Of a stretch of DNA of 64,000 nucleotides, positions 13,650 to 62,072 are shown one piece after another (position 1 is the stretch's first letter; every line of letters begins with the position of its first letter). This DNA comes from Malacoraja senta (Eukaryota), in assembly GCA_038087875.1 (NCBI GenBank), contig CM075993.1, positions 4,466,001 to 4,530,000 of the forward strand, given 5' to 3'. Under the pieces are notes generated by a model. The model was not told the origin of the DNA and did no database searches. It was given only the letters and a program-made list of their open reading frames with translations. The position numbers were made by a program, and so were the translations under genes.

Positions 13650-13677
13650 CTGAAGAAGGGTTTCGGCCCGAAACGTT
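13650..13677 (+). ncRNA. Candidate minimal hammerhead core, second subfamily
   Basis: CTGAAGA-A-GGGT(TTCG)GCCC-GAAA-CG-TT. Identical copies at 23953 and 52464, one-base loop variant at 56372. Confidence 0.55.
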
Positions 13678-13914
13678 GCCTATTTCCTTCGCTCCATAGA
13701 TGCTGCTGCACCCGCTGAGTTTCTCCAGCATTTTTGTGTACCAGGGAGTTATCTTTAGTTTAGTGTTCAGGAAGGAACTGCAGATGCTGGAAAATCGAAG
13801 GTAGACAAAATTGCTGGAGAAACTCAGCGGGTGCGGCAGCATCTATGGAGCAAAGGATGCTCCAAGGATGCCGCACCCGCTGAGTTTCTCCAGCAATTTT
13901 GTCAACCTTATCTT

Positions 13915-14209
13915 TAGTTTAGTTTAGAGATACAGCGCGGATACAGGCCCTTCGGCCCACCGAGTCCGCACCGACCAGCGATCCCTGTACACTAGCATTA
14001 TCCTACACATGAGGGACAATTTACGATCTTTTAACCGACAAACCTGTACGTCATTGGAGTGTGGGAGAAAACCGGAGCACCCGGGGGAAACTCTCGGGGT
14101 CACGAGGAGAACGTACAAACTCAGTACAGACAGCACCTATAGTCAGGATCGAACCTGGGTCTCTGGCGCTGTAAGGCAGCAACTCTACCATTGCGCCACC
14201 GTGCTGCCC
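13915..14209 (-). mobile_element. HE1-like tRNA-derived V-SINE, full length
   Basis: A/B boxes (GTGGCGCAATGG, GGTTCGATCC), V-domain GTACGTTCTCC..CTCCGGTTTCTCCCAC, tail GGGCCGAAGGGCCTGT shared with local CR1/HER1-like LINE ends, (CTAAA)n. Confidence 0.85.
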
Positions 14210-14321
14210 TTGAGTTCTTGACCAATCTCTCTCCCTCCCTCACCAAATAGTCCGGAAGGTTGGAAGGGAGTACATCAGTCAGTCTAGCTGCATCGCTACT
14301 CTCAGGGAACTGTACCCCAAA

Positions 14322-14547
14322 AGGGCCTGTCCCACTTGGCCGTCATTTGCACGTAAATTACGCTACATCATTTACGCGTCACAACGCACAACGCGCGCGA
14401 CGTGACACCCACGTGATGCGCGCATGGTGCACGATGACATAGGCAGTGACGCGCGGCCGTGCGCGGCGTCGCAGTATTTTGTGATGTACAAAATCTTCGC
14501 GCGCCATCTGCGTGACATGCAAATAACTGCCAAGTGGGACAGGCCCT
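14322..14547. mobile_element. PIF/Harbinger-type MITE, subfamily B (CpG-rich palindromic interior)
   Basis: AGGGCCTGTCCCACTTGGC...GCCAAGTGGGACAGGCCCT|TTA. Confidence 0.8.
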
Positions 14548-14847
14548 TTAATCTCTCTACTCTGCAACCCACTTCAGGGTTCAGCCATTTACTGTGTAAA
14601 TCCTGCCCTGATTTGACTTGCCAAAATGAAACACAGCGCATATTTCCGAATTAAACTGAGTCTGCCATTCACTGGCCCAGCTATCCAGATCCTTTTCTAA
14701 ACTTTGATAGCTTTTGATAAATTTGAAAACTTTATTGCACACTATACCATCAATGTTGGTGTCACCTGCACATTGACTACATTGTCATTCAAATTGTTAC
14801 TATAGATGACAAACAAAGTGGATCCAGCACAGATGACTGCAGTGCAC

Positions 14848-15242
14848 TTCTCCGCGGATTGTCACCTTGTCGTGGTGGAGAATCTTGTGTGGGCCTGAGA
14901 TCCTGAGAGCGATGCCGTCTGGAGCTATGCTCCTGGTAGGGCCACCCACGGCGGTAAGGTCGAGGGGGAGGTCTCTGACAAAGAGCAATCCAACCAAGAC
15001 CTCAACGGTGGAACAGGCGGAGGACGATGGCTGACTTTAGTGGAGCGTCACAACGGCTGGAAAGGCGGATGAAGGCTGCAGCAGAAAAGGGTCTCCGGTC
15101 GTCTTGGACTCCATGCCACTGGATCCTGACCCAGATCTGTCAAGGACCGTGTGGGTGGCTGTCTGTGCACCAGTCTCCCCACTGTCATGCACAGGCGTCC
15201 TCCGTGAGAGGACAGTCATACTCGTTTCGAGTGACCGCCGAT
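14848..15242 (+). mobile_element. Short RTE-clade-derived non-autonomous retroelement
   Basis: 5' blocks ccttgtcgtggtg / atgccgt / agggccaccca / tctgacaaa resemble BovB/Rex3-type RTE leaders (from memory). 16-bp TSD gatgactgcag(t/a)gcac inside an older CR1 fragment. Confidence 0.6.
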
Positions 15243-17239
15243 GATGACTGCAGAGCACCACTGGTCACGGGTCTTCAGTCAGAAAACCAACCCTCCACCA
15301 TCACCCTCCGGCTCCTTCCACCAAGCCAATTTGAGTCCAGTTGAGGTGGCATCACTGTCATCTCAATGTCGGAAGGGAGGTGTGAAGGGAGGAGCAGGGG
15401 GGGAATTTAAGAGCTCAAGACCTGGACAGCTGAACCCATGGTCAGAAATGATGCAAGTGGCTGCAGTTAGGTGTGATCGAGAGGTCAGAATAGGAAGAGC
15501 ACTTGGATGTATCGGAGCTTTGTGGAGATTGCAGAAGTAGGGAGCTTCACAGCAACATGGAGAGGGGATGTTAAAATCGAGGCTAACATTTTGAATTCAC
15601 TTGATTGTGATCACCCATCATTTATTGCGGGGAATTTACTAAAACAATGCCGCCGTCAGTCGCGCTTCAGAAGGTTAGTAAATAATTCACGAGCAAAGAA
15701 AAGCCAGTTGACAAAAAAAACAACTCGAGCTACATCAATCACACTAAACAAAGCCCCCTTATTCCAAGATCTCTTCAGCCAGGCACCCAGCAACAGTTCT
15801 AGCTCCCATTGCATTTATCATTGTTCCCTTGCTGCTAATTGCTCATCACAGGCATTCGGCCAAAGATAGAGATACAAGTCAGCTATGCATGTAAAACGTT
15901 TGTTCGAAAGTAAAGGAAAGGCAGGCAGCCTGCAAAGTAAACCCAGGCACTTGTGTTGAATATCAGTTACTGCCTCTGACGAAAGGTCCTGTGGTTGTCA
16001 CAGAACAGGAGAATCCCAGCTGAACTCACCAGCGATGAATACAGTCCCTCAATTATTCAACAGGTCTGCATTTCCATTAACTGGAAATAATGCCGTCCTA
16101 CAAAATTTATTCGGGAAATTGTCTACATGCTGTTTCTACCTCGCATCACTTTGTCTCTGGATTATTAAAAGCCACATGTTTACTGCCCAGCCAGCAGGCA
16201 TTTGAGTTGGATAAAGCTGTTAAACTTCGGCAAGGATTCTTCCAACTTGCCTTTTGGGGATGCTACTGCCCTGTGGCATCTTCCACACGCATACATGGTC
16301 TTGTACACAGCAAGCAGGAGCAACATCCCCAAGGGTAGCTGTACACATTACCTTGATGCTTCAAACAGCAAGGCAGGTTATTTCCCAGGTCAGTTTCCTT
16401 TCCATGACCGGCTGAGTACTTTTTGGCATTTTGCTGCTTGTATTCTGCAGTGAACTCTATATGTAGGAAGGAACTGCAGATGCTGGTTTACACCGAAGAT
16501 AGACACAAAATGCTGGAGTAACTCAGTGGGTCAGGCAGCATCGCTGGACAGCATGGACTTCCCGACCCGAAACGTCACCTATCCATGTTCTCCAGAGCTT
16601 GACCCACTGAGTTACGCCAGCACTGTGTCCCCTTTTGTGTAAACCAGCATCTGCAGTTCCTAGTTTCTGCACAATAGCCACAGAATGCCTTGAGGGGAGC
16701 GATGCACTCAGTGCGGTGAATGAGGTGCTGGTTTAATGGGCAGGATGGCCTCGAGTGTTGTTGAAGTTGTACTCATCCAGTTGGGTGGATGTAAAGGGTG
16801 GACAGGGCTAATTAGGAGACAATAGCAGAGACTTAGATCAATGAGGGTGAAAGATACAAGGACAGTCAACAACACAGTCCAACCCTGAGGCCTCAGAAGG
16901 ATGGGGATAATTGATTTGCAACTTCACATGTGTAGAGTATAGAGACTCAGTAGGGCATGGCTCAGTGTCCACAATAAGTGAGCAAGGTGCCAAATCACAT
17001 CTTCCTTCAAACCTGGGCTAAGGCAGCAAGAGCAAAACCAATGCCAATGAAGCCACTTTGAATTAGACAGCAGGGCTGATAATGTAGAAACAAGGAACTG
17101 CAGGTGCTTGTTTACATTTTAAAAAGGACACAAGGTACTGGGGTAACTCAGCGGCTCAGGCAATGCATCTCTGGAGAACATGAATGTTTCGGATCGGGAC
17201 ACTTCTTCAGACTGAGGAAGGGTTCCAACCCGAAATGGA

Positions 17240-18107
17240 GGGGGCGCTGCTCTGGGCAGCGGCCATGTCAGCAGCGGGTCCGTTTTTTCAACTTTTTTTA
17301 ATTTTTTAGTATGTTTTAAAGTATGTATTTTGTGTATCTTTGTGTGTCTTGTGTGGGGTGTGGTGTGGGGGGGTAAGGGGGAAACCGCTTCGGTCGCCTC
17401 CTCCATGGAGAGGCGACTTTTTCCAGGTCGCCTCCCCCGTGGCCTAACATCAAGGATCGGCGCGGCCTTTCCCGGAGACGTGCCCGGGCTTCAGCGGCGG
17501 GCGCAGCGTGGACTCTCGGCGTGGAGCGGGTGAACCCTCGCTGGGGCTCGCTGGAGGGGAGCGCTCCGTTTCGCTGGCCCGGGGCAGCCGGCAGCCTGAA
17601 GTCACAGCCTGAAGTCGCGGTCTGCAGAACTCCAGCTGGTGCGGCGTCTACAGCCCGGGATCCCCCGTGGGGGACCCGGGGGAAGAAGAAGCCATCACTG
17701 CCGGCCCGCGGCCAACTTCTACCGCGGGGCCGGCATGGACTTACCATCACCCCTGGAGGGGAGCTTCGACCGCTGGCCCTGCAGTCTACGGTGCTTCTGG
17801 CTGCAGCGGAGACTTTAAATCTCGACAGCCGGCCTTCGGCCTACAACAACTTAAAGCCGCGGTCCCCGGTGAGGAAGAGCCGATCCTGGACTGATTCTGG
17901 ACTCTGGTCCTGTTCACGGAGGGGAAATGGAGGAGGATTGGCCAAATTTTTGTGCCTTCCACCACAGTGTTGAATGCTGTGGTGGATGTTTGTGTTACAT
18001 TTTTTATTGTGGTTGTGTGTTCTTATTATTGTATCGCTGCTGACAACCCAAAATTCCACCAGCTTGGCTGTGTGGTCATTAAAATACTATACTATACTAT
18101 ACTATAC
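17240..18107 (+). mobile_element. GC/CpG-rich non-coding retroposon with an (ATACT)n tail
   Basis: Sharp GC-rich insertion splitting a PLE terminal unit, with a tandem 3' tail. Shares blocks with 11214-11800. Confidence 0.6.
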
Positions 18108-18180
18108 CTATCCTGTTCTCCAGAGATGCTGTCTGACCTGCTGAGTTACTCCAGCACTGTGTCTTCAGCAATGCTGATAA

Positions 18181-18530
18181 AGGGCGGCACAGTGGCATAG
18201 CTACTCGATCACAGACCTTTCTTTTGTTCCTTTCCTGACGCTCCAAATCTATTCATATAAATTACAGCGCCAAAGACCCGGTTCGATCCTGACTGTGGGT
18301 GCTGTCTATACGGAGTTTGTACGTTCTCTCTGTGACCCTGTGGGTTTTCTCCGGTTTCCTCCCAAATGCCCACACTCCAAAGACGTACAGTTTTGCAGGC
18401 TAATTGGCTTGGTAAAATAGTAAATTGTCCCTAGTTTGTGTAGGATAGTGTTAGTGTAGGGGGAATCGCTGGTCGACCTGAACTTGGTGTTCCGAAGGGC
18501 CTGTTTCCGTGCTGTATCTCTAAACTAAAC
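18181..18530 (+). mobile_element. HE1-like V-SINE with a 54-bp foreign insertion in its tRNA head
   Basis: SINE sequence is interrupted at 18208-18261. Confidence 0.8.
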
Positions 18531-18977
18531 GATCAGGACTGAAACCTCAGCTGATTTTACCTCTAGGCCAAATATACCAAGGCACAACTACTGCTTTCTC
18601 ACCTTCAAGAACAAATTCATAGCAAACCTGGGCCACTTCCACTCTGTAGCAATGAACCACTCACCGTCTTAAGCAGTTGAACTACAGAGTACTTTATCTC
18701 CCACTGTGATTCAGTTAGCAGAATGCCATCAATTTTCCTACGCCTCTTACTTCCTGATTTATTTAATATTAAGCAACCTCGTTCATTAAGTCTGTTATGC
18801 AAAATGTAGTAAGAACGATTTTAATTATCTATGCCAGAGCTAAAATGTTACTGCTTCAACACAAAGCAAAATAGATCATTTTATCTTCTCATTAATTAAC
18901 ACCAAAAGCTGCAAAACATCCCGCAATAATTACTACAGCAATCTGCACTATCACTATATAAAACTCAGGAAGATTAA

Positions 18978-19567
18978 AGGGCCTATCCCACTTAGGGGAT
19001 TTTTTAGGCGACTGCTGGCGACTACGACAATGGAATTCACCGAAGTCGGCACCGGCCACAACCTGCGCCATCTTGGTGACAACCTACGACTGCACCAACG
19101 TCAGGAGAAGACTCCCGGTGGCTCAGCACTTCAACTCCCCCTCCCATTCCGTATCTGACCTCTCTGTCCTGGGTCTCCTCCATGGCCACAGCGAGCAACA
19201 CCGTAAATTGGAGGAAATGCACCTCATATTCCGCTTGGGCAGTCTACATCCTGGGGGCTTGAACATTGAATTCTCCCAATTCTGCTAGCCCTTGCTGTCC
19301 ACTCTCCTTCATCAGCCCTCTGGTTGTCTCCTCGCATCCCCCAGCCCTCGGGCTCCTCCTCCGCCTTTTTCCTTTTTTCCTTTCTTCTCCCCACCCCCTA
19401 TCAGTCTGTAGAAGGGTTTTGGCCCGAAACGTTGCCTATTTCCTTCGCTCCATAGATGCTGCAGCACCCGCTGAGTTTCTCCAGCATTTTTGTGTATCTC
19501 AGGAGAAGACAAGCTACGACCAATCCCCGGCAGTCGCCTAAAAAATCGCCTAAGTGGGACAGGCCCT
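18978..19567. mobile_element. PIF/Harbinger-type MITE, subfamily C, hosting a nested PLE
   Basis: TAA|AGGGCCTATCCCACTTAGG...CCTAAGTGGGACAGGCCCT|TAA. Confidence 0.82.
19113..19498 (+). mobile_element. 5'-truncated Penelope-like element: GIY-YIG endonuclease C-terminus plus 3' pLTR with hammerhead-like core
   Basis: PVAQHFNSPSHSVSDLSVLGLLH...RKLEEMHLIFRLGSLHPGGLNIEFSQF* is typical of PLE endonuclease ends. Hammerhead-like motif at 19406. 12-bp TSD tcaggagaagac at 19101-19112 and 19499-19510. Confidence 0.85.
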
Positions 19568-20916
19568 TAAAGCTCCTAAATACACTTTCAACAGATTAAT
19601 ACCTGGAATACTAGAACCACAGTGATACACTGTACACTTTCTACTTCACACCCTTTTTACCTTTATGCGACTTTCCAAAGAGAAAGGTTTATTCTGATCC
19701 TCAATAAAAGCAAGTTTAAAAGAAAAAGGAGGAAAGTGTGAAATGCACAGAACAATTTAAAAGACAGTGTCCAAGATCAACGCATAAAAAGCACTGCAAT
19801 CAGGTCTGCAATCAATTGCGTATGTAAGTCATGTGAAGAGAAATATATGTCACGAAAGTTCAAAGATGTCATTAAAGGATTGACTAATTGCACTGGTTTG
19901 AGTTCAGCAAGTTCAGCGAGTTATGCACATTTTATTTAAATATAGAAGCCGCCAAAGAAAATTTGCCCAAATTTGCATCCAGGTTATGAACTCAATGTAG
20001 ACTCTGGAAAAGTTAAGAGGGCAAACTACATCAGATTGGTTTCGAAGGGAAATGAAAAGGTCAGCACAGACATTAGAAGATGTGACCCAAGAGGGGCAAA
20101 GTGATAACCAACATGACCATTTTTAATCAGGTTGTAACTGCTCATTAGTTTCTTCACTTGCTACACTCAATTTTTCCTTGTACCGTCATTTGACATTTTG
20201 TCATTTGATTTCCCGTTTCACTCTATCACAGACCTTTCTTTTGTTCCTTTCCTGACACTCCAAATCTATTCATATAAACTATGCAGATTTTCCAACAATT
20301 TTCAGCGCGGATAAAGTTACTGACCTGAAGCACCATCTCTGGATCTCCCCACAAAAAACATTGCCTGGCCTGCCGAATATTTCCAGCATGTTGTTTTGAT
20401 AGCAATGTATATTATTATATCTCTCCATTTCCTCGTGGATCAAGATTCTCCTCTTTATATGTGTTGTTTCCACATCTTAATGAACAGAAGAAGGATCCCA
20501 ACCCGAAATATCCTCTGTCCATTCCCTCCACAGATGCTGCCTGTCCCACTGAGTTCTTCCAACACTTTTCTTTTGCTTAAGATTCCAGCATCTGTAGTTT
20601 CGTGTACCCACACTGATTTACACCCCGAATTAACAAAGTACATCTTTTAATGTCAAGGCTACACTCCGTAAAATAATAAAATATTCAACCTTCTAGCTCG
20701 ACTGATCCACCTCCAATCCACATTCTTAGATTCTCCAGAGCTCTCCATTCTCAACATTTTTCAGTTGATTTAAGTCCAGATTCCTCTCATCAGTTTATTC
20801 TCAGCTCTCCCGGGGAAACAAAAATACGCGCGCCGCTAATGTGTAATAAAAAAAGAGAATCTGCCTCATTCTCTCATGGCGAGAGAATGTTACCTTCATT
20901 ATCACTCAACACTTTA

Positions 20917-21174
<258 letters not shown>

Positions 21175-21359
21175 CTAATGAAGACACCATAGTTACCAAC
21201 TCCAAAACTCCATGGGCTTGTTCACTTTTACGCTGCGTAAGGTTACAGCTAACAATCGCCTGTTTCCTTTATCATCGTTACATTTTTGCATATCTTTCAT
21301 TCATTTGTTCTATATCTCTCTACATCTCCGTCTAAATCTCTCGTTTCCCTTTCCCCAGT

Positions 21360-21387
21360 CTGAAGAAGGGTCTCGACCCGAAACGTC
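21360..21387 (+). ncRNA. Candidate minimal type-I hammerhead ribozyme core in a PLE terminal repeat
   Basis: CTGAAGA-A-GGGT(CTCG)ACCC-GAAA-CG-TC: conserved core boxes, 4-bp stem II, palindromic ACGT stem III, GUC triplet. Stem I is weak. Confidence 0.6.
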
Positions 21388-22539
21388 ACCCATTCCTTCT
21401 CTTCAGCGATACTGCCTGTCCCGCTGAGTTACTCCAGTATTTTAGAGCAGCATCTGCAGTTCCTTCCTACATGTTACGTTTCCTCTCTTGGGAGCGAAGC
21501 ACTCACCGTGGCTGGGCTCGGATCCACTTAGCTACAGATGGATGCATTTCTGGGAAGTCACTCACAGTACATCTGCAGTTGGCATCGTTGGAACCAGGGT
21601 CCCTGCTCAATTCCTCACCCCACAGGTCTCCCTCCCACCTCTCTCGCCAAGACCAACTAACTGGTGACAGTTTAGCTGAATAAATGGGGTCATCCTTCTG
21701 CAAGGACAACATTTTATACCTCTACATTTCAATACACATGTCAGGTGAGGAAGTAAGTTCATGAGAAACTCGCCATTTATTCTTCAGCTTATGTTTCTAT
21801 AAAGAACACACACAGTGTTTTAAATAATTAAAATGCAAAACATAGCGAACAGAAATATCAACCCACAGAGAAAGCCTTGCTTAGATTTAAGCATGTTATA
21901 GAGGAAGATATGAATTATAGATGGTGGGGACAAAAGCATTTCCAGCTTCCTTTGAAACTTCTCAGGTGCACGATAGATAGGGTGGATGGACAGTACCAGA
22001 GCAGGAGAATTAAGAACCTGAAATCATAGGTTTACAGTGAGAGGGGAAAGATTTAATAGGAACCTGAGGGGCAACCTTTTCACACAGAGGGTGGTGAGTA
22101 TATGTAACTAGTTGACAGAGGAGGTAGTTGAGGAATATACCATAAAAGCATTTAAAAGAGATTTGGACAGAGGCGTGGATAGTAAAGGTTTAGAGAGGTA
22201 TGGGCCAAATACAGGTAGGTGGGAGTAGCATAGATGGGCATCTTGGCCGGCATGGGCAAGTTGGGTTGAAGGGCCTGTTTCGCACTGTATAATTCCATCC
22301 CAAAGATGTGACGGTTTGCTGGTTTCCATGTTCTCCATGTTCTCTAGCATCTCTGGAGAGATGGAATAGGTGACGTTTCAGGTTGCGACCCGAAATTTCA
22401 CCCATTCCTTCTCTCCAGAGATGCTGCCTGACCCACTGAGTTACTCCAGCATTTTGTGTCTTGCTTGGGTAAACCAGCATCTGCAGTTTCTCGCTAATAC
22501 AAATCGAGTAAGGCTGGATTAAACAAAGCCGTATCCAAA

Positions 22540-23002
22540 TTACAAGGATGTTGCCAGGACTAGAGGGTCTGACCTATAGGGAGAGGTTGTGTAGACTGGA
22601 TCTATATTCCTTGGAGCTCAGGAGGATGAGGGCTGATCTTATTGAGGTGTATAAAATCATGAGTAATAGATCGGGTAGATGCACAGAATCGCTTGCCCAC
22701 AGCAGGGGAATCGAGGGCCAGAGGACATCGATTCAAGATGAAGGGGAAAAGATTTAATAGGAATCTGAGGGGTAACTTTTTCACACAAAGGGTGGTTGTA
22801 TGGAACATGCTGCCAGAGGAGGTACTTGAGGCTGGGACTATCCCAATGTTTAAGAAACAATTAGACAGTACATGAATAGGACAAGTTTGGAGGGATATGG
22901 ATCAAGCGCAGGCAGGTGGGACCAGTGTAGCTGGGACATGTTGGCCGGAATGGGCAAGTTGGGCCGAAGGGCCTGTTTCCACACTGTATCACTCTATGAC
23001 TA
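22540..23002 (+). mobile_element. Second CR1-like subfamily, 3' fragment (tail donor for the HE1-like SINE)
   Basis: MLPGLEGLTYRERL..YSLE.RRMRADLIEVYKIM and RNLRGNFFTQRVV, tail gggccgaagggcctgtttcc. Relatives at about 1-340, 21975-22295, 50705-51465, 60327-60510. Confidence 0.85.
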
Positions 23003-24875
23003 AATGCTTTATCCAATTATATATTCAATCTAAACCCAAACCTATCTCCATAAAAAAATATAGATTATGTCATTTCATTACATTTTTAATTTTACTATTC
23101 AGCAAAATACACAAATTCTATTTTAAAAACAGTAACATCTTCATAATGGGTTAATACTTTTTTTTTTTTAAGTACATTTCCAACCAAGAACATTAATGGA
23201 TTTAAGTAAAAAGCATTTTTTCCACTTTGGAAGATTCTGTGTATTGGTTTTATTGTTCGTTGTTATGTTTGAATGCACATGACTACATTTATTTTTAAAC
23301 AGGAATTAGCACTTAAACAGCAAGGCCTTCAGTTGCAGTAGACACAAAATGCTGGAGTAACTCAGCGGGACAGGCAGCATCTCTGGAGAGAAGGAATGGT
23401 GACGTTTTGGGTCGAGACCCTTCTTCAGAATGGTTTGGGATAAGGGAAACGAGAGATAAAGGCGATGATGTAGAGATAAAGAACAATGAATGAAAGATAC
23501 TCGCTAGAATTTAGGAGATTGAGAGGGGATCTTATAGAAACGTACAAAATTCTTATGGGGTTGGACAGGCTAGATGCAGGAAGATTGTTCCCGATGTTGG
23601 GGAAGTCCAGGACAAGGGGTCACAGCTTAAGGATAAGGGGGAAATCCTTTAAGACCGAGACCGAGAAAAAACGTTTTCACACAGAGTGTGGTGAATCTCT
23701 GGAACTCTCTGCCACAGAGGGTAGTTGAGGCCAGTTCATTGGCTATATTTAAGAGGGAGTTAGATGTGACCCTTGTGGCTAAAGGGATCAGGGGGTATGG
23801 AGAGAAGGCAGGTACGGGATACTGAGTTGGATGATCAGCCATGATCATATTGAATGGCGGTGCAGGCTCGAAGGGCCGAATGGCCTACTCCTGCACCTAT
23901 TTTCTATGTATCTATGTTTATGCAAAAAAGTAACAATGATAAAGGAAACAGTCTGAAGAAGGGTTTCGGCCCGAAACGTTGCCTATTTCCTTCGCTCCAT
24001 AGATGCTGCCTCACCTGCTGAGTTACTCCAGCATTTTGTATCTACCTTCATTTTAAACCAGCATCTGCAGTTCTTTCCTACCCATCCAAATTCAAAGTTC
24101 TCTTTCAAGCTAAAATGAATTTTAAGCAGAAATAGTCATCAAAGACAAAGGATGAGCTGCAGCACAGATTACAGTGCCAGTCACGTTCTCAGTTCAGTCG
24201 TTTAATAAAATACTAGAATTTTTGGCGGATTTGTTTAGTTTAGAGATACAGCGCGGAAACAGGGCCTTCGACTCCACGCCGACCAGCGATCCCCGCACAT
24301 TAACACCATCCTACTCACTAGGGGCAATACCAAGCCAATTAATCCACATAACTACGTCTCTGGAGCATGGGAGGAAACCGGAGCACCCGGAGAAATCCCA
24401 CGCAGGTCACGGGAGGAGGGAAACATACAAACTCTGTACAGACAGCACCCGTAGTCAAGATCAAACCTGGGTTTCTGGTGCCATAAGGCTAACTGGAGGT
24501 TGACTGGAAGATCGGGAATCTATCCTGATCTTATGAGCGGTCCATTCAAGAGTCTGATAACAGCGGGGAAGAAGCCGTTCTTGAATCTGGTGGCGTGCGC
24601 TTTCAAGCTACCACTGCGCCACCATACTGCCCTTGATTAATTTTAAAACATCAAGAATTATAAAGTCCATAAATGCAAAATTAAAATAAATGTTCGAAAA
24701 CCTTTGTGCAAACGAAGGACAAGAATTAATAAAGAGTTGGTCACAAATGTTTTTAGAAAAACCAGAACGTAAAATTGCCCTGAGCAACACAGATAAACAA
24801 GGCAACGGGTTGATGCAGAATTTGTTGCATTTAAGCAGATGAATAAAGAAAAAAATACAATAAATAATTTGTTTA

Positions 24876-25299: not shown

Positions 25300-25440
<141 letters not shown>

Positions 25441-28160: not shown

Positions 28161-28165
28161 GTTAA

Positions 28166-28921: not shown

Positions 28922-29325
<404 letters not shown>

Positions 29326-43660: not shown

Positions 43661-43999
<339 letters not shown>

Positions 44000-45519: not shown

Positions 45520-45612
<93 letters not shown>

Positions 45613-52060: not shown

Positions 52061-52160
52061 CTGCGTAAATGGTTCTGACAAATGTGTCTGGAGCTTTAAT
52101 TTCAATGATATCGGAGATGGCAGCAACATCAAGCTTTGCAGCTATTCTGGGCAGAAGATT
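52061..52160 (-). CDS. ETFA: ETFA coding exon 5 ([33 protein letters not shown])
   Basis: Close match to NLLPRVAAKL...ISDII...[11 protein letters not shown], 100 nt, tttgcag/gtagg. Confidence 0.96.
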
Positions 52161-52347
52161 CTGCAAACAAATGGAAAGCCACAAATAAACTATTTTCTAC
52201 AAAGTGTGAATGTTTACATATTTTTTTTAAAGAAGTAACACCAATTTGTTATTTTCACGTTGCTTTATGTTCAGCTACTTTGATTGGATTCACCAGCATT
52301 ATAATTTCCCAGGAATCTAGGCGATGAAAGAACCAGATACTAATGCA

Positions 52348-52557
52348 TTTAAGAAGGAACTGCAGATGCTGGAAAATCGAAGGTAGACAAAAGTGCTGGA
52401 GAAACTCAGCGGGTGCAGCAGCATCTATGGAGCGAAGGAAATAGGCAAAGTTTTGGGCCAAGTCTGAAGAAGGGTTTCGGCCCGAAACGTTCCCTATTTC
52501 CTTCGCTCCTTAGTTGCTGCTGCACCCGCTGAGTTTCTCCAGCACTTTTGACTACCT
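52348..52557. mobile_element. Palindromic PLE-terminus-derived element
   Basis: Inverted arms, hammerhead core at 52464, 14-bp TSD cagatac(t/g)aatgca. Confidence 0.8.
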
Positions 52558-52869
52558 CAGATACGAATGCAAGTCTCGAACAATCTGAGGATAACAATGA
52601 GGATCTGATTCAAGGAAAGGACGACAGCTGGAGGAACTTTGCGGCTCAGGCAGCCTCCGTGGAGGAAAATGGACAGTCAAATATTTCAGGTCGAGACCCT
52701 TCATCTAGACCGGTGGAGGTAGCCCGTACAGTATAAAGAGGTGAGGGGAAGGATGGGGCAAGAGCTAGCGACTGAGAGGTGGATACAGGTGAGGAGGGAT
52801 TGATTGACAGATAATGTTTGAGGAAACAAGAGGAACACTTCACTTGGGTATACTATCATCCAACGATAT

Positions 52870-53172
52870 TAGTTTAGTTTACTTTAGTTTAGAGATACAG
52901 CGCGGAAACAGACCCGTCAGCCCACCGGGTCCACGCCGACCAATGATCCCCGCACATTAACACTACCCTACACACACTAGAGACAATATTATATTTACCA
53001 AGCCAATTTACCCACAAACCTGTACATCTTTGTAGCGCAAGAGGAAACCGAAGATCTCGAGAAAACTCACACAGGTCACGGGAAGAATGTACAAACTCCA
53101 TACAGACAGCAGCCATAGTCGGGATCGAACCCGGGTCTCCGGCGCTGTAAGGCAGCAACTCTACCACTGCGT
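52870..53172 (-). mobile_element. HE1-like V-SINE
   Basis: Reverse-complement head, V-domain and tail. Confidence 0.8.
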
Positions 53173-53353
53173 CACCTTACCGCTGCTCTCCCTTCATTCT
53201 GCAGTCTCTTGTGCGTCCATCATCAGATTTAGTTTTATATCCCACTACTCTGTCCCGGAAGTACCCTTAATGATAATACATTAGCTGGGAATACGTTGTA
53301 TGCTTTAAATGGACCTTGCAGCTCAGTATTTTTTCGTCTCTCTATAAATATTC

Positions 53354-53832
53354 ATAGATACATAGATACATAGAAAATAGGTGCAGGAGTAGGCCATTCG
53401 GCCCTTCGAGCCTGCACCGCCATTCAATATGATCATGGCTGATCATCCAACTCAGTATCCCGTACCTGCCTTCTCTCCATACCCCCTGATCCCCTTAGCC
53501 ACAAGGGCCACATCTAACTCCCTCTTAAATATAGCCAATGAACTGGCCTCAACTACCCTCTGTGGCAGAGAGTTCCAGAGATTCACCACTCTCTGTGTGA
53601 AAACGTTTTTCCTCATCTCGGTCTTAAAGGATTTCCCCCTTATCCTTAAGCTGTGACCCCTTGTCCTGGACTTCCCCAACGTCGGGAACAATTTTCCTGC
53701 ATCTAGCCTGTCCAACCCCATAAGAATTTTGTACGTTTCTATAAGATCCCCTCTCAATCTCCTAAATTCTAGCGAGTATAAGCCAAGTCTATCCAGTCTT
53801 TCTTCATATGAAAGTCCTGACATCCCAGGAAT
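53354..53832 (-). mobile_element. Young CR1/HER1-like LINE 3' fragment
   Basis: Uninterrupted frame IPGMSGLSYEERLDRLGLYSLEFRRLRGDLIETYKI...FTQRVVNLWNSLPQ...GIRGYGEKAGTGY*, followed by a (CTATGTAT)-type tail. Confidence 0.92.
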
Positions 53833-53867
53833 TCGGTTGCTTCTCGATGCTAAAACACTTCTGGTAT

Positions 53868-54245
53868 TAGACATAAAATGCTGGAGTAACTCAGCGGGGC
53901 AGGCAGCATCAGGGGAGAGAAGGAATGGGTGACGTTTCGGGTCGAGACATTTCTTCAGACTGAGAATCAGGGGAGAGGGAGGCACAGAGATAAGGAAGTG
54001 AAAGGTATGAAAAACAAGACATCAAAAGGGATGCAGCTCAAGGAAAATGTTGAATACATCAGTGTTAGATAGGAGTAGGTTACAACAAAGCAAACAGAAG
54101 TAAAAATGTAATCAGGGGGACAGTTAGACTGGTTGGAGAATTGGCAATGGAGAGGGATGGAGAGAGAGGGAAAGCAAGGGTTACTTGAAGTTAGAGAAGT
54201 CAATATTCATACCGCTGGGGTGTAACCTGCCCAAGCTAAATATCC
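53868..54245 (-). mobile_element. Penelope-like element 3' end
   Basis: Minus strand reads IFSLGRLHPSGMNIDFSNFK*, followed by a pyrimidine-rich UTR and a degenerate hammerhead-like unit at about 53931-53958. Confidence 0.8.
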
Positions 54246-55139
54246 ACCGCTTGTAAGTTGTTTTAAATTATCCCTTTCACTTTCCATAGCTGCTTTTTGA
54301 AACTCTAAAGAAGGGTTGGTGTATGAACATCCAAAATGATACCACAAACATTTGATATTTTTATTTACATTAACTATATCCACAAAAGTTGGCACATTCT
54401 TTTTTTTTCCCCTGATGATCATTTGGTTCTTTTTTTAATAATTCTCAGAGAAAGTATGTTCTGTTCCCCTTCGCTTCTACGCGTTAAAGTAGGAATGTCA
54501 GTCAAAAAGCAACAAATAGTGGGTAAAGTCAGATGATTACAATCTAGCTGGGAATCACAGAAAATAGTAGAATTCAGCCCAGAGAAAAGAGCAGAACTAA
54601 TTAAATAAAACAGAACTTAAGATATAAAATGTACTGTTTAATGCACAGTAATTCAATTGAGATGCCATTAAGCCATTGACCTGACAGCTCCAAAACAATA
54701 TGAAGGATTGCAAGGGAAGCTGCAGGAAGTGTTATTGCAATTTGGGTCTCTGTTGAAGGACTAGAGAGCATTATCAACCACTTACAGCATTAAACTTCTC
54801 GTCAAAGCGCAAGTGGACACTTTCCAGCAGATTCTGTTTCAAATATTTTCAGAATCACAATGAAACTCCAACAAGGTTGTTATTTGGACCATCTCCCCTG
54901 TGCTAGCTGTTCGATAGAGCTCCATAAATAATCCTATTCCTCTGCTCTTTACCTTTTGTCCTTTTTATTCCACCCTTTCAGGCATTACATAAACGGCTCT
55001 CTTGAAATCACTATTGAATCCACTTCGATCGCCCTCTCAAGCTGTGCATTCCGAATCACTTATAAATCGTGTTAATCAAATTCAAACCTGGTGTCCTATC
55101 TAACTCTGTAATGGGCACATGGCACTGGGTAAAACTTAC

Positions 55140-55222
55140 CTTTCCAAAGGCAGAGGCCCCAGCACATATGTGTGTGAATTTAAACTGTTTGTGTGAAACC
55201 AGGACCAGTGGTGTCAGTTCCT
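55140..55222 (-). CDS. ETFA: ETFA coding exon 4 ([28 protein letters not shown])
   Basis: [12 protein letters not shown] motif, 83 nt, ag/gtaag boundaries. Confidence 0.96.
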
Positions 55223-55848
55223 CTGTCAACGATAGAGAAAAGGAAACATTAAGGATAGAAATGAAGTGTCTGAAAACATCTATATTAGTCCAAAGAATAA
55301 TATTGAACCCCAGGGTACATAAATCACAATGTGAAACATGAAATTAGAGGCTTGCACATGCCTGTACATCTTCAATGTCCTTCTTTTTTTTGGGTTCCTA
55401 TCCCTTTACCGATTGCTGTTATAAAGGTATCCCCATATACCTACTCTAGACTTAGTGGGGAGATTTATTACTTACATCCACGGCATGTGTTATCGCTAGT
55501 TTGTTTTTAATTATGTCACTTAACATTCCACAATAAATGTTAGGGACAGTGTTTGAAGCTATAAAAACATATGTTAGTCATAGAGTTAGAGTATAAACAG
55601 TTAAGAGCACAAGAAAGCAGTAGAATGACAAATGTCCTCTCAGAGGAACAATAGCGAAAGGCCATTTATAATAAACTGCAAAAATAAAACTCTTGCCTCG
55701 GGAATAGCACGTTTAAAATCTACTAGCATTATTTTAGTACTTAAACACCATAACCTACAACACCAATAGCTTAGCGCAGAGAACATCAGCCTAGTCAGAT
55801 AAAAATGTAAACAAAAACAGGAGGCGAGAGAAGAGATCACTGGAACTA

Positions 55849-56801
55849 CAGTGCCCTCCATAATGTTTGGGGCAAAGACCCGTCATTTATTTATTTGCCT
55901 CTATACTCTACAATTTGAGATTTGTAATAGAAAAAAAAAATCACATGTGGTTTGTGCACATTGGCAGATTTTAATAAAGGCCATTTTTATACATTTTGGT
56001 TTCACTATGTAGAAATTACAGCAGTGTTGATACATAGTCCCTCCATTTCAGGGCACCATGTTTGGGACACAGCAATGTCATGTAAATGAAAGTAGTCATG
56101 TTTAGTATTTTGTTACATATCCTTTGACATACAATGACTGCTTGAAGTCTGCGATTCACGGATATCACCAGTTGCTGGGTGTCTTCTCTGGTGATGCTGT
56201 CAGGCCTGTATCACAGCCATCTTTAGCTTATGTGTTAAAGAAGGAACTGCAGATGCTGGAAAATCGAAGGTACACAAAAATGCTGGAGAAACTCAGCGGG
56301 TGCAGCAGCATCTATGGAGCGAAGGAAATAGGCAACGTTTCGGGCCGAAACCCTTCTTCAGACGAAGGGTTCTGAAGAAGGGTCTCGGCCCGAAACGTTG
56401 CCTATTTCCTTCGCTCCATAGATGCTGCTGCACCCGCTGCGTTTCTCCAGCATTTTTGTGTACCATCTTTAGCTTATGCTTGTTTTGGGGGCTATTCCCC
56501 TTCAGTTTTCTCTTCAGCATATAAAAGGCATGCTCAGTTGGGTTCAGATCGGGTGATTGACTTGGCCACAAGAATTGACAATTTTTTTGCTTTGAAAAAC
56601 TCCTTTGGTGCTTTAGCAGAATGTTTGGGATCATTGTCTTGCTGTAGAATGAACAACCGGCCAATTGAGTTTTGAGGCATTTGTTTGAACTTGAGCAGAT
56701 AGGATGTGTCTATACCTTTCACAATTCATTATGCTACTGCCATCAGCAGTTGTATCATCAATGAAGACAAGTCTTTGACCCAAACATTATGGAGGACACT
56801 G
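55849..56801 (-). mobile_element. Internally deleted copy of the same Tc1 family
   Basis: TA|CAGTGCCCTCCATAATGTTTGGG ... CCCAAACATTATGGAGGACACTG|TA. Retains QQDNDPKH and WPSQSPDLNPTEH fragments. Confidence 0.92.
56233..56462. mobile_element. Palindromic PLE-terminus-derived element inserted in Tc1
   Basis: Two inverted pLTR units, each with a hammerhead core. 16-bp TSD ccatctttagcttatg at 56217-56232 and 56463-56478. Confidence 0.85.
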
Positions 56802-56899
56802 TAGTTGAGATTTTTACATCTTTGTTGGCCATAAGCAAGCTACCAAATGTCGGAGGAAGGCAAATGCTGCCCCCCCACCCCCCATTCCGCACCACCCCT

Positions 56900-57710
56900 T
56901 TTCAAGAAATGTAGCGGGCGAAGACTGGTAATGACGGACCTGTGTGCCGATTGTCAGCAGTGGGGAAGTTATTGGAAAAAAATCTGAGGGACAGAATTAA
57001 TGATTACGTGGAGAGACTAGCCAGGATTAGCTTTGCCAAGATCAGATTTTAGTCTAATTGAATGTTTTGAGTACATTGATGAGGGCAATTCTGTGGAATT
57101 CTCTGTCTCAGAGGGCGGTGGAGGCCGGTTCTCTGGATACTTTCAAGAGAGAGCCAGATAGGGCTCTTATAGATAGCGGAGTCAGGGGATATGGGGAGAA
57201 GGCAGGAATGGGGTACTGATTGGGGATGATCAGCCATGATCACGTTGAATGGCGGTGCTGGCTCGAAGGGCCGAATGGCCTACTCCTGCACCTGTTGTCT
57301 ATTGGCAGTTTACACTGGACTTCGCTGAGGCGTTCAACAAAGTACCAAAGGGAGACTAGTCCTAAAGATTAAGGCCTGGGGGATCCAGGGCAAGTTGACA
57401 AACTGGATCTAAAAATGGCTGAGCAAGAGGAGACACGAGGGTTATGGTAGAAGAGTATTTTGGGGATTGGATGCCAGTGTCTAGTGGTTTTCCACATGGA
57501 TCAGTGCTGTTTACAACATACGTGATTGATTTGTATATGGACGCAGGTGACATGATCAGCAAGTTCCAAGTTGATACAAAGTATGGTGGAGTTGTTGTCA
57601 GTGTGGATGGTGGTCTTAGGCAACAGGGTGATATCGGTGTGATAGTGAAATGGGCTGAAACATGGCAGTTGGAGTTTAGTCCAAATAAATACGAGGTGAT
57701 GCACTCTGCA
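56900..57710 (+). mobile_element. Degenerate CR1 reverse-transcriptase fragment with a younger CR1 tail nested at about 57087-57305
   Basis: DW.PVSSGFPHGSVL..YVIDL...ISKFQVDTKYGGVV...WAETWQLEFSPNKYEVMH (decayed FADD region). Confidence 0.8.
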
Positions 57711-57987
57711 ATTGCAATTCATTGACTCCACACCGATCGATACTAACCTTAATTTACGTACTTGCCCGCTAGCCTTGTGTGACATTTCATGTACTAATTT
57801 CAATACTTATTAAAATGTCAATTAAACCTACACTAAGTGACAAAAGAAGCAAGGAGGACCTGGTGCAGAGGTACAGGAAAATATGGAGACGAGGGATGAG
57901 ATTGCTCTTCTGAGAAATAGCATGGACCTAATTAACAAAATGACCTCCCTCTGTATCCCAGTGAGTAAGTAAATCAAACTTGCCCAC

Positions 57988-58068
57988 CTGGCAGCAAACC
58001 TTTGAATATGTCACTCTGTGCCACTAAATCGTCTTCACTCCTTGCACTTTACTGACTTCTTTCACCAC
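57988..58068 (-). CDS. ETFA: ETFA coding exon 3, apparently frameshifted (VVKEVSKVQGVKTI/[L]VAQSDIFKGLLP)
   Basis: Acceptor ttcttgcag, donor CAG|gtggg. Length is 81 nt where phase continuity with exon 4 needs 82. The 5' part reads in one frame, the 3' part (VAQSDIFKGLLP) in another, with an in-frame TAG at 58024-58026. Confidence 0.9.
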
Positions 58069-58412
58069 CTGCAAGAATTAAGTCATCAATAGCTTTGAAC
58101 AAATCTCAAGAGAAATAATGACCACACGAGAGGCAGCCAAGAAAAATCTCTGTGTTATATCAACTGCATCACTAAGGTGCAGAAATACGCTCCATTTTTC
58201 CACCGAGCCTTTTTAAAAAATATATAGTCAAAGACCTTTGGTTCAGTGCCAGTTTTCATTGAGGCACCATGAAATGTTTTATTAAACATGCAATATAAAA
58301 TGCATTTTGCAATGAAGGTTAAGAAAGCCCTATAGACATGTGCATACAATACCACAATGATTTTGAATCAGAAATTTCTTTTAAAATTTCCAGGAATGGC
58401 AACACTTCTTAC

Positions 58413-58562
58413 CTTGCTGCAATCTGTTCCAGCGACCAAGCAGGTTACATCTCCACCCAGCTGTTTAGCAGCTGTAATGGCATTGAGGGTAATTGGAGTC
58501 AATTTCTTATTATCATGTTCTGCGAGAACAAGGGTGCTCTGAAGTCGTCGCAGATAGCAAAT
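58413..58562 (-). CDS. ETFA: ETFA coding exon 2 ([50 protein letters not shown])
   Basis: Manual translation matches the vertebrate ETF-alpha N-terminus (QSTLVIAEH...PITLNTITAA...LGGEVSCLVAGT). Acceptor tcttttgtag, donor AAG|gtaag, 150 nt. Confidence 0.95.
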
Positions 58563-61559
58563 CTACAAAAGACAATAATCTATTACAACTGTGCTACCAG
58601 CAAAACCAACCCTGATCACCTATTCCTAAATACTCTTAAGATAATGGTGAGTCACCTTCTTGAATTTCCACACTACTTTTTGGTACAGTTCTAGATGTTT
58701 GACTACACGATGAAGGAATGTAATACATGCCAAGACTTTAGACTTTTAGACTTTAGAGATAAAGCGTGAAAACGGGCCCTTCGGCCCATCGAGTCCACGC
58801 CAACCAGTGATCACCACATACTATCCTACACACTAGGGACAATTTAAAATTTGCAGATGCCAATTACAAACCTGCACATCTTCGGAGTGTGGGAGGAAAC
58901 CGGAGTAGCCGGAGAAAACACACAGTCACAGGGAGAACTCCATACAGACAGCACCCGGAGTCAGGATTGAACCCAGGTCTCTGGCACTGTAAGGCAGCAG
59001 CCTACCGCTGCCCACTGTGCCGCATCAAGTCTGGATGGTTTGTGACCATGAGGCAACCTCAATTAATGGTAACCCCATGCACCTCCTGTACATCCTCCAG
59101 CTTGCTAGAGATTGTAGACTTCAGAGTTCCTGCACTGTGATATGCAGTTGGTGTCATTTCTGGCATTTTTATGATTATTACTGTGCACCCCAACTTCTGA
59201 CATGATCAATGATGAATGACATTCATGAATGTCAAGACAGTCTGAAGATGGGTTTCGGCCCGAAATGTTGCCTATTTCCTTCGCTCCATAGATGCTGTTG
59301 CACCCGCTGAGTTTCCCCAGCACTTTTGTCTACCTTCGATTTCCAGCATCTGCAGTTCCTTCTTAAACACATTCATGAATCAACCAGGGTTGTTTGCGAA
59401 CAGTACATTGCTTCTGCAAAAGCTCTGGGGCTGAAATAATGAACCTCCAACAGCCACAAACACTTTAATAAATCCACGCAAAGAGGTGATTTCCCTTTTA
59501 TTTCAATTGACGTTAACGTGACAGGTAACCAAACTTGGTCAATGCTGCTTTGATATCACTCCTTTCAAACCTCTGGAATAAGGCCTTTCAGTGCATAGTA
59601 TAATTTGACAGGATAGCGTATAAACAACACTTTTCACTATATCTTGCACATGTGGCAATAATGTACCAAATACCAATGCCAAGGTTGGTACAAAGGTTGG
59701 AATGACGTCTGGGTTCAATGGTCACAGTGAAACTTAAATTATCAGTTTCTCAAAGCTGAGGTTTGAAGATGTTAGTGTATTTTCCATAAAAGATACAATA
59801 AAAAAAGTATCATTTTTTGTAAGTGAAAAATATTGGTCAGGACACTACAAAAAAAATCTTCTATTCTTAACAAAATAGTGCCATGGAATATTTTCCAGCT
59901 ATTTTGAAGGACCTGTGCGACATCCCATACAAATTGCAGGTATTCAAGGTCAGAATATGAGTAAACATTAGCTCTCATTGTCAACATCAAGTTTCAGATG
60001 TTGTTGAGACAGTAGTTTATGGCATTGTCCACACAAAGTCTTAGTATGTTAATCCACAAGAACATTCAGGATAAATGATTAAATGTTCATACTAAATCAT
60101 TACTGTAGTCGGAAATATGTGTAATTAATTACTTCAGCGTTTCCCGATAATTAACTAATGAGCAATCCTTCCCAAATCAAAGACGGTGTACAATTACCCC
60201 ACGACATTTAATTGTGCAAACAGAACTGCAAGTCAAATTTCACCCAATACAGCGACAACAGTTCAAATGATAGAATTGATTGTGGGGCTCCGCAGCTCAT
60301 TATTATCACACTACAGCACACAAAAGCTTTACAAGGATGTTGCCAGGACTCGAGGGTCTGAGCTATAGAGAGAGGTTGAGTAGGCTGGGACTCTATTCCT
60401 TGGAGCATAAGAGGGTGAGGGGTGATCTTGTAGAGGTGTATAAAATCATGAGAGGAACAGATCGGGTAGATGCGCAGAGTCTTTTGCCTAGAGTAGGTTT
60501 AAGGTGAAGGCCAATTAACCTCCAAACCTGCACGTTTTTTGGCCTGTGGGAGAAAACCGAAGATCTCGGAGAAAACCCACACAGGATACGGAGAGAACAT
60601 ACAAACTCCGTGCAGACAAGCACCCACAGTCTGGATCGAACTCGGGTCTCTGGCGCTATAAGGCAGCAGCTCTACCACTGTGCCACCCGTTGGGTTGACA
60701 GTGAAGCAGCTATGGGAAGATGGGTGACAGAGAGGGGATAGCAGGATAGCTTACAAAATTGCAGCAGTTTTCAATATGGTTTATGGCGTTACTCTTAAAA
60801 TAACAGCAAGTTCATTCAACTCTGTTTTCAGAACATGCCATGTCATTATTTAACAAGCGACCCCTAGACTTCCAGCCCAGGACCAAAAATAATGTTCCAC
60901 TTTACTCATGTTACATGAACAAAAATAAGGGTTATCTCATATTTACATTGATGCCTATAATTATAAATAGTATAAACTCTGATCATCTATCTACATGACC
61001 CATGTTTTATTCAGTTCAGTTATATGGTTTACAATTGCGCCATTTGTTTTTCTTCTAACGCATCTGCCCTTGGGAACATTGACATGTCACCAGACAGGGC
61101 TTTCCATTTTGATTTGATGTTCTTAAATCCGAGGAGCAGAATTGGGCTATTCGGCCCAACAAATCTACTCCACCATTCAATCATGGCTGATCTATTCTTT
61201 CCCTTTCTACCCCATTCTCCTGCCTTCGCCCTATGACCCATGACAACTGTACTAGAATCAAGAATCTGTCAAACTCTGCCTTAAAAATATTGACTTGGCC
61301 TTCACTTCCATCTGTGGCAATGAATTCCACAGATTCACCACCCTCTGACTAAATAAATTCCATCTCACCTTCTCTAAAGGTACATCCTTTTATTCTAAGG
61401 CTATGGCCTCTGGTCCTAGACTCTCCCACTAGTGGAAACATCCTCTCCACATCCACTCTATCCAGGCCTTTCACTATTCGGTGTTTCAATAATATCCCCC
61501 CCGATCCTTTGAAACTCCAGTGAGTGCAGGCTCAGTGCCTTCAATAGAAAAATTGAGGG

Positions 61560-61850
61560 ATTGAGGGCCTGGAAAACTGACGTCATTGAAGAGACGAAGG
61601 GCGTGTGAAAATGTCTTGGACATAGGTTGGGAGGGATTGAACCGGGGGAGGGGGATAGGATGGAGTCGAGGAATGTGAATGACAGGAGCAGGCGGAAACA
61701 ATGGGTCTGCCAGGGCAGTTCTGTTTATGGATTTTGAGAAGGTAAAACCGGACTGAGCAGGGCTGGGGAACGATAAGGTTGGAAGCTGTAGAGGCCAGAC
61801 AGCCAGAAGTGATAAAATCAGAGATAGTCTGTGAAACGATGTCCTGGTGG
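61560..61850 (-). mobile_element. Degenerate Penelope-like reverse transcriptase fragment
   Basis: Minus strand reads HQDIVSQTISDFITSG..ASNLIVPQP..RFYLL-KIHKQNCPGRPIVSACSC, then TFSHALRLFNDVSFPGP after a frameshift. An inverted pLTR unit abuts it at 61869. Confidence 0.8.
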
Positions 61851-62072
61851 TGTCATGGGCCATGGAGTCTGAAGAAGGGTCTCGACCCAAAACATCAAGC
61901 CATTCCTTCTCCCCTGAGATGCACACTGTTCGCTCAGTTACCCAGTATTTTGCATCTATCCACAATCTAAATAGGAAGCAGACTAGACTATTGTTATGGA
62001 GACACGTAAAACTGACGTGTCAGGGACAGTTTCTTCCCAGCTGTTACCAAGGTCCCTTCTTCAGACCGCAAC

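Follow-up and report, generated by a model that had tools for sequence, protein, structure and literature searches.

Minimal type-I hammerhead ribozymes (HHRs) in the termini of Penelope-like elements (PLEs) are already known as a class. Here we analyze a repeat family headed by such a motif in the introns of the gene ETFA of the skate Malacoraja senta, within 64,000 nucleotides (nt) of contig CM075993.1 (assembly GCA_038087875.1, positions 4,466,001 to 4,530,000 of the forward strand), a stretch hereafter called the window and numbered from its first letter; ETFA lies on its minus strand. What is unusual in this family is its scale and the clustering of its 5′ ends. We consider it very probable that the motifs are minimal type-I hammerheads heading the 5′-truncated 3′ ends (a pseudo-long terminal repeat, or pseudo-LTR, and an optional 36-nt tail) of Penelope-like elements, likely of the Neptune type, and that the copies in ETFA introns are likely inert.

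The closest described motifs are the minimal HHRs of metazoan PLE pseudo-LTRs (Cervera & De la Pena 2014, PMC4209133; cited throughout from the available part of the paper). Both there and in the window, copies are mostly single and truncated, close pairs on opposite strands occur and the consensus boxes are shared. In contrast, stem I of the window motif has only 2 bp where their descriptor needs 3, the density here is far above their counts, and no chondrichthyan is present among the 56 motifs listed in that part. Neptune EN+ PLEs (Craig et al. 2021, PMC8557442; also available in part) resemble our family in a C-terminal GIY-YIG domain with two Cys and two His (CCHH), in 5′ truncation, in the inverted 5′-truncated copy and in a tail of 30-40 bp that is often one-sided, the last three being also found in the accessible part of Arkhipova (2013), which notes palindromes at inverted junctions. 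The relatives of the window element carry a DKG motif and the CX2-5CxxC linker, which in Craig et al. marks Neptune and Nematis and is absent in Penelope/Poseidon; unlike the published elements, ours is known from the last 58 and ~21 codons, without reverse transcriptase (RT) in the window. The same source calls the role of the HHR in PLEs unclear.

The Anolis Poseidon element PAc (Frangieh et al. 2024, PMC11167929) likewise has two fixed 3′ ends one tail apart, which correspond to two reverse-transcription start sites in vitro, an HHR upstream of them and no indication of ends at the cleavage site. It differs in having no Neptune linker clade assignment and in an open reading frame (ORF) that starts inside the HHR. 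Non-LTR retrozymes (Cervera & De la Pena 2020, PMC7229834; Li et al. 2026, bioRxiv 10.64898/2026.07.22.740005; both available in part) share with the window a type-I HHR, a short non-coding PLE-related unit and a very high copy number, whereas the window copies are dispersed and inverted and come with duplications and PLE ORF remnants. Retrozymes are recognized as tandems of at least two consecutive complete HHRs; the sole tandem of the window (9300-9476) has no intact CUGA, and Tandem Repeats Finder (TRF) finds none. Among the papers listed by our literature search, none describes this skate family; Repbase, Dfam, subscription-only papers and the Li et al. (2026) supplement, any of which may cover it, lay outside the scope of that search.

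Motif cores, repeat unit and subfamilies

The original prediction, made from the letters alone, described about 20 hammerhead-like cores at roughly one unit per 3 kb. The pattern CTGANGA-N(8-30)-GAAA occurs 19 times in the 64-kb window against 5.45 expected, a number reached in 0 of 100 shuffles, and all 18 positions named in that prediction hold the motif or a decayed copy. At the coordinates given, the seven copies called intact all present CUGAAGA, four of four stem II pairs, GAAA, CG and UH. The 11 copies called decayed all exist, with 10789, 23400 and 53931 on the minus strand, and three of them (10789, i.e. -10816, 45950 and 59242) still satisfy the core descriptor. In total, ten copies in 64 kb present the catalytic boxes CUGANGA and GAAANNUH and the stem II of the published minimal-hammerhead descriptor, compared with 0.05 per block shuffle (20 shuffles). 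Stem II of the passing type has 4 bp (published range 3-7 bp), a G10.1-C11.1 closing pair and an extra A between positions 9 and 10.1. The palindrome at 15.2-16.2 reads ACGU in eight of the ten cores and AUGU in 45950 and 59242, with no loop 3. Stem I has 2 bp in five of the ten cores and 3 bp in none; the predicted length of about 2 bp holds for three of the seven intact copies (21360, 23953 and -56361) and fails for 13650 and 56372 (1 bp) and for 52464 and -27611 (0 bp).

This anatomy agrees with the published consensus of minimal HHRs, as had been proposed: U-rich upstream sequence, CUGANGA followed by one base, a stem II opening with G, GAAA, a palindromic pair and UH. None of the 11 catalytic positions departs from it, and the extra base ahead of stem II, its G-C closing pair and the palindromic stem III agree with it as well. 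Judged by anatomy and location, the motif is a minimal PLE hammerhead that falls one pair short of the formal descriptor.

The intact core at 21360..21387 (+; subfamily A; 2-bp stem I), antisense to ETFA, follows ~120 nt of the untranslated region (UTR) of the element. The one at 23953..23980 (+; B-type; 2-bp stem I) belongs to the right arm of an inverted pair, 23325-24083, split by another repeat. Three other intact cores lie at 13650..13677 (+; subfamily B; 1-bp stem I), at 52464..52491 (+; subfamily B; no stem I), in an arm of the pair 52341-52568 that has a 14-bp duplication with one mismatch, and at 27584..27611 (-; subfamily A; no stem I), in an arm of the head-to-head pair 27509-27736, which has a predicted fold of 91 pairs. 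The core at 10789..10816 (-), on the ETFA sense strand in the last intron, passes the descriptor with two G-U pairs in stem II and no stem I. A further, very decayed core-like remnant adjoins this copy at about 10685-10720 (+) and was missed by the profile search.

The motif forms the head of a repeat of ~100 nt, or ~135 nt with the optional 36-nt tail. Using a profile built from 17 window copies and starting 6 nt before C3, we detected 57 arms at 38 loci on both strands between 1755 and 62202 (one locus per ~1.7 kb), representing 5536 bases or 8.6% of the window and at least four subfamilies. The core region is reached by 30 of the 57 arms, one per ~2.1 kb. The recurrence of the motif was thus seen correctly and its predicted count was too low.

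Diagnostic letters downstream of the core distinguish at least four subfamilies, A to D, rather than the two initially recognized by their stem II. The pairing of stem II is indeed kept, but the change between A and B is one-sided (U-A to U-G) and not compensatory; a two-sided change (C-G) was found only in two metagenome contigs outside the window. Between subfamily majorities, 0 of 11 core positions differ against 8-15 of 57-58 downstream positions (three non-independent comparisons), so that the core is more conserved than its flanks across subfamilies, as expected under the prediction. The T at position 19409 is private to its copy: 99.8% and 97% of the contig depth in two DNA runs read A, giving CUGAAGA.

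At 19400-19405, 21354-21359, 42068-42073 and, on the minus strand, 53959-53964, pyrimidines running into CAG precede the CUGA box at a distance of one base. All four subfamilies have a second pyrimidine tract ~45-50 nt past C3, which terminates in YAG and is closely followed by an ATG; in subfamily B, this ATG opens a frame running through the tail. Either tract could be the splice acceptor of a 5′ intron of the element. In the D. virilis element, the intron end maps at helix I.

Penelope-like remnants and insertion anatomy

In two copies, 19406 and -53958, the hammerhead was found downstream of the end of a PLE ORF, in the terminal repeat. Directly upstream of copy 19406, the 5′-truncated end of a Penelope-like GIY-YIG endonuclease (19113..19288, +) retains the C-terminal 58 codons and the stop. 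It belongs to the longest subfamily-B insertion (19101..19510, +), which comprises a 12-bp exact duplication (19101-19112 and 19499-19510), the ORF end, a pyrimidine-rich 3′ UTR, the hammerhead with the private mutation at 19409 and the short 3′ end. A long subfamily-A insertion on the minus strand (53860..54246) contains the last ~21 endonuclease codons (54246-54181), a 3′ UTR, the hammerhead 53958 with a broken stem II and the short end; its upstream codons match the related ORF weakly (E 0.005).

The peptide encoded by 19113-19288 matches 5 of 33 candidate proteins, the best being 86% identical and belonging to a Leucoraja erinacea model. It presents 61-68% identity to four proteins that carry C-x4-C-x2-C and then a GIY-YIG region with the CCHH residues, and the C-terminal part found in the window keeps both His. 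When one of these four homologues (P0004) was compared to 1.84 billion representatives, 4478 proteins were retrieved at E up to 0.001. We scanned seven of its long relatives (800-950 aa): six match RVT_1 and seven match a C-terminal GIY-YIG, three of them above the GIY-YIG cut-off. The long relatives that were inspected carry the DKG motif, and one of them has a C-terminus that can be aligned with the window fragment (37% over 51 residues). These RT-bearing proteins are two search steps away from the window fragment, and the window itself holds only the last codons of the ORF. Pfam returned 0 matches for the 58-aa fragment alone and only weak, unrelated families for the four homologues. The linker suggests that the element likely belongs to the Neptune type. 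Two other candidates were rejected. The RVT_1 domain of the top match (P0001) was considered as the RT of the element, but this protein looks like a chimeric gene model, with an RT portion that matches the LINE-type fragments found at 57438 and 14733. Copies 21360 and 23953, 2.6 kb apart on the same strand, do not flank a full-length element: they belong to different subfamilies and no PLE protein match lies between them.

Arms finish at two fixed points, a short end ~92 nt past C3 and a long end 36 nt further. By reading the arm positions, we counted 15 head-to-head pairs. Among the 13 classifiable ones, 11 combine one tailed and one short arm (P = 0.009 relative to independent choice) and two are tail-tail; the test dropped two unclear pairs (17088/17207 and 22346/22381), and the short ends are imperfect in two of the 11. 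Of the 25 loci tested, 7 are bordered by direct repeats of 12-19 bp that exceed the 95th percentile of mismatched flank pairs. Together, the GIY-YIG remnants upstream of two copies, the target-site duplications, the inverted pairs and the optional tail support the Penelope origin that had been proposed.

The model head-to-head insertion (56217..56478) consists of a tailed arm (core -56361), a 10-nt spacer and a short arm (core +56372), with a 16-bp target-site duplication, and forms one hairpin of ~97 pairs. A solo tailed copy of subfamily B (59219..59380, +; core 59242) has UG in place of CG in stem III and a 12-bp duplication. Other arrangements include an older head-to-head pair of subfamily C (45805..46042; cores -45934 and +45950), a pair cut short downstream of the hammerhead (24857..25042) with a 19-bp exact target-site duplication, and a coreless pair (13749..13925) with a 16-bp duplication. 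Just downstream of ETFA, an inverted tailed arm is associated with the only same-strand tandem (9195..9476; units 9300-9373 and 9369-9476), in which neither unit has an intact CUGA. Judging from arm identity, pair 23325/23949 (86%) appears to join two templates and pair 9195/9369 (99%) a single one, so that both kinds occur.

Abundance and 5′ ends

Contigs from two DNA runs of a single study were mapped to 19040-21480, where 137,854 and 226,876 records could be placed; more than 10^5 contigs thereby stack on three copies. In the two runs, respectively, summed depth was 5-9 and 27-64 in most unique bins, 3.2 and 23.9 million at copy 21360, and 0.9 and 3.1 million at the codons for GIY-YIG; summed contig depth is no copy number and was taken only as an order of magnitude (10^5-10^6). 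Together with the 57 arms at 38 loci, this supports the very high copy number initially suspected. For a skate genome of about 2.3 Gb, extrapolating 5-10 intact cores per 64 kb would yield, as an order of magnitude, 2-4 x 10^5 motifs, with the caution that the window may be atypical. For comparison, 126,247 type-I motifs are counted in axolotl, and minimal motifs number about 4,000 in coelacanth and about 9,000 in Xenopus in the available part of Cervera & De la Pena (2014, PMC4209133). A Penelope-like expansion in shark introns is reported in the accessible part of a whale shark preprint.

Among the 30 core-reaching arms, 22 start within ~9 nt around C3, six run further upstream (four judged by an ORF remnant or shared UTR, two only by a pyrimidine-rich appearance) and two are uncertain. 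For 14 of the 22 clustered starts, the position is anchored, either by a neighbouring arm (inverted or in tandem) or by a duplication (about 12 independent junctions). With a downstream background loss of 0.095 per 9 nt, this clustering is highly significant (P = 8e-17 for 22 starts and P = 2e-7 for 14), for a 9-nt window that was picked after the fact. Since the profile begins only 6 nt ahead of C3 and UTRs diverge rapidly upstream, the eight unanchored starts could be artefacts. Among contigs, the loose 5′ ends with the strongest support also lie at 21356-21359 (best 12 of about 2100 rows, with incomplete counting), and those at 21357-21359 present unrelated A/T-rich flanks (upstream agreement 0.31-0.33). 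A micro-palindrome, TCA-GTC-TGA, overlaps the CUGA box and forms the exact centre of pair 17210/17212.

These positions lend no support to ribozyme-cut templates: of the 57 arms, only 2 have their start no more than 2 nt from the cleavage site, and this position is absent from the best 12 of about 2100 loose-end rows. Because arm starts and loose ends cluster at the 5′ edge and not at the cleavage site, the copied RNA was presumably for the most part not cut by the ribozyme. A common spliced exon completing stem I was rejected as well, no shared upstream sequence being found at the loose ends (DNA only).

We propose that the GIY-YIG/RT protein of the element would nick the target and start reverse transcription at the tail end or at the short end, as the Anolis element does in vitro. 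Synthesis of complementary DNA would usually stop or switch strand just after copying the hammerhead, producing solo or head-to-head inserts of ~100-135 nt, and the micro-palindrome probably aids the stop or the strand switch. The core would be kept by selection on the source elements, where it may cut weakly as a dimer via the ACGU palindrome, probably with the help of a protein, and copies would decay after insertion. A bolder reading, which we hold to be less likely than not, is that skates carry several hundred thousand hammerheads, among the highest loads known, and that the hammerhead region acts as a stop or strand-switch signal for the RT (or as a mark of the RNA 5′ end), a function beyond template cutting. 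On this reading, a stem I of 2 bp would be the reason why neither Rfam nor the published descriptor picks up the skate hammerheads.

A transcription start at the edge of the hammerhead, or a short non-autonomous element, would yield the same peak of 5′ ends. The latter explanation, which we regard as unlikely, holds that the ~100-135-nt unit is itself a retrozyme-like or SINE-like derivative of the pseudo-LTR, copied in trans by a PLE protein, with a shared 5′ end that is its own RNA 5′ end or a run-off from the start of the 5′ pseudo-LTR. It would account for the 22 of 30 arms beginning in one 9-nt window and for the rank of 21356-21359 among loose ends genome-wide, and it is consistent with tail-to-head joints from 21471 to 21356 in 50 and 58 contigs, with the one short tandem of the window and with the non-LTR retrozymes described in one chondrichthyan in the available part of Li et al. 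(2026). However, the bins of GIY-YIG coding sequence also reach a summed depth about 10^5 times single-copy, which indicates that long truncated copies are very common, and the six arms that extend upstream do so by differing lengths. In addition, ribozyme-cut monomers should begin at the cleavage site, where just two arms do, and no common sequence precedes the loose ends at 21357-21359.

Ribozyme identity, activity and the host gene

Rfam covariance models gave 0 matches at the gathering threshold in 64 kb, and in 21200-27800 even E values of up to 10 brought up no hammerhead family. The published descriptor, with a stem I of at least 3 bp, gave 0 hits in the window and five hits when 2 bp were allowed. 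The absence of any model hit, which the original prediction had listed as counting against it, was therefore technically observed, but the miss of the descriptor is owed to a single pair of stem I. Matches of Rfam to microRNA-like families (E up to 10, below threshold) were rejected as hairpin-driven artefacts because the inverted pairs form hairpins. A scan of metagenomes retrieved only two contigs (L001:1112-1182 and L002:3500-3527), which share the core but have C-G at the stem II pair that is U-A or U-G in the window, and whose stem I has 3 bp; both pass the 3-bp descriptor and neither has homology to the window unit downstream, and L001 has an inverted partial copy upstream.

We find it improbable that the motif is a mere look-alike that never cleaves and is kept for another reason (the element might use it as a splice acceptor, as a promoter signal or for protein binding). 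The 2-bp stem I, the failure of Rfam and of the published descriptor, and the pyrimidine tract and AG directly before the core would be compatible with it, as would the HHR mutants of Anolis PAc, which left insertion in vitro unaffected (Frangieh et al. 2024, PMC11167929), and a covariation score that did not exceed shuffles (143 of 500; seven sequences, uninformative at that size). On the other hand, the catalytic positions, extra base, closing pair and stem III palindrome all fit the consensus, stem II is 100% paired in seven of seven aligned rows including the two-sided change, and variants with a 2-bp helix I, found manually, are listed for Drosophila, Culex and Oikopleura in the available part of Cervera & De la Pena (2014, PMC4209133).

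The caution that activity is unproven was justified, and predicted folds, stem I counts and the mutation test make activity of the genomic copies unlikely. Neighbouring cores lie on opposite strands and the window contains no intact same-strand tandem. Three of the ten intact cores are in the sense of ETFA: -10816 and -27611 lack stem I, and -56361 is inside the 97-pair hairpin. Their predicted stem II probability in a 200-nt context is 0.00 in all three cases; among the nine cores folded, it exceeds 0.3 only for +23953 and +59242, and copy 23953 has the highest value (0.7 locally). At 23938-23995 (+), antisense to ETFA, the purine-rich strand of the inverted UTR arm pairs with the pyrimidines past the cleavage site, forming an accidental extended stem I. 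When two 40-mers are forced into a double hammerhead, the fold reaches -6 to -7 kcal/mol, against a cofold minimum of -22 to -25 kcal/mol; this comparison uses nearest-neighbour energies and ignores tertiary contacts. As monomers, published minimal HHRs show no cutting, and their cleavage as dimers is weak (Cervera & De la Pena 2014, PMC4209133, available part), and the Anolis PAc motif needed protein (Frangieh et al. 2024, PMC11167929). On these predictions, the ETFA-intron copies are likely inert leftovers. That some copies are working ribozymes, co-opted or selected against, that cut ETFA pre-mRNA or other host introns appears very improbable: ten cores do satisfy the descriptor once its stem I requirement is dropped, and there is a mild antisense lean (7 of 10) with fewer core mutations, neither significant, but just three intact cores lie on the ETFA strand in the contexts described above, their nearest intact same-strand partners are 17-29 kb apart, the double-hammerhead fold is predicted 16-18 kcal/mol above the cofold minimum (tertiary contacts again ignored) and the published motifs are uncut as monomers.

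Several observations weigh against our interpretation as a whole. [quoted passage not shown] The Neptune placement derives from the linker motif of four relatives, which is also found in Nematis, and not from a tree. No duplication above the null was seen at 18 of 25 loci, and a fold-back origin fails for pair 23325/23949, whose arms are 86% alike and whose first arm is 97% like another copy. When all mismatches to the subfamily majority are counted, the core presents fewer than the flank (4/225 and 97/1291, respectively; P = 0.0007), a deficit that we attribute to the lumping of source lineages and to the choice of arms by their core. Private non-CpG changes give 3/218 in the core and 40/1154 downstream (P = 0.14), or 5/238 in the core when cut ends are not skipped (P = 0.42; 24 arms); this test, on arms likewise chosen by core, is of low power, and its trend goes in the same direction. 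Finally, the antisense lean of the intact cores has a two-sided P of about 0.34, calculated by hand, and is not significant.

The identification of ETFA as the host gene was correct: 10 exons were found on the minus strand, from exon 2 to the last exon (10133..58562, stop at 10133), and Pfam ETF/ETF_alpha scored above cut-off in two of the three exon pieces searched, the third probably having been entered in the wrong frame. Neither exon 1 nor exon 3 could be located in the window, and copies 59242 and 61869 are for this reason only presumably in intron 1. A gap of 200 N beside GC-rich sequence (62499-62698) may hold exon 1. Inside the gene, arms are split into 24 plus and 22 minus, and core-region arms into 14 and 12.

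The surroundings contain many LINE 3′ ends (12335-12757, 23500-23900, 34940-35328 and 53452-53840), which we take to be CR1-like and one of which splits the inverted pair 23325-24083. Two minus-strand reading frames, 34497-34949 and 56293-56709, presumably represent fragments of Tc1-type transposases. A tandem array with a 25-bp unit (14 copies, 67% matches) occupies 26732-27081. Head-to-head pairs (24917-25011, 27538-27676 and 22346-22425) fold into long hairpins with sub-threshold Rfam matches to microRNA families, and such hairpins could potentially form double-stranded RNA in the ETFA pre-mRNA.

About 9% of this intronic DNA consists of one repeat that forms long hairpins scoring as false microRNA-like matches. 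In a genome where insertions number some 10^5 or more, the role of the hammerhead in PLEs can be probed statistically: insertion ends reveal which RNA was copied, and intronic sense/antisense ratios reveal whether the motifs ever cut. If the pile-up of 5′ ends does reflect such a stop or strand-switch signal, the Penelope hammerhead would have a role other than template cutting.

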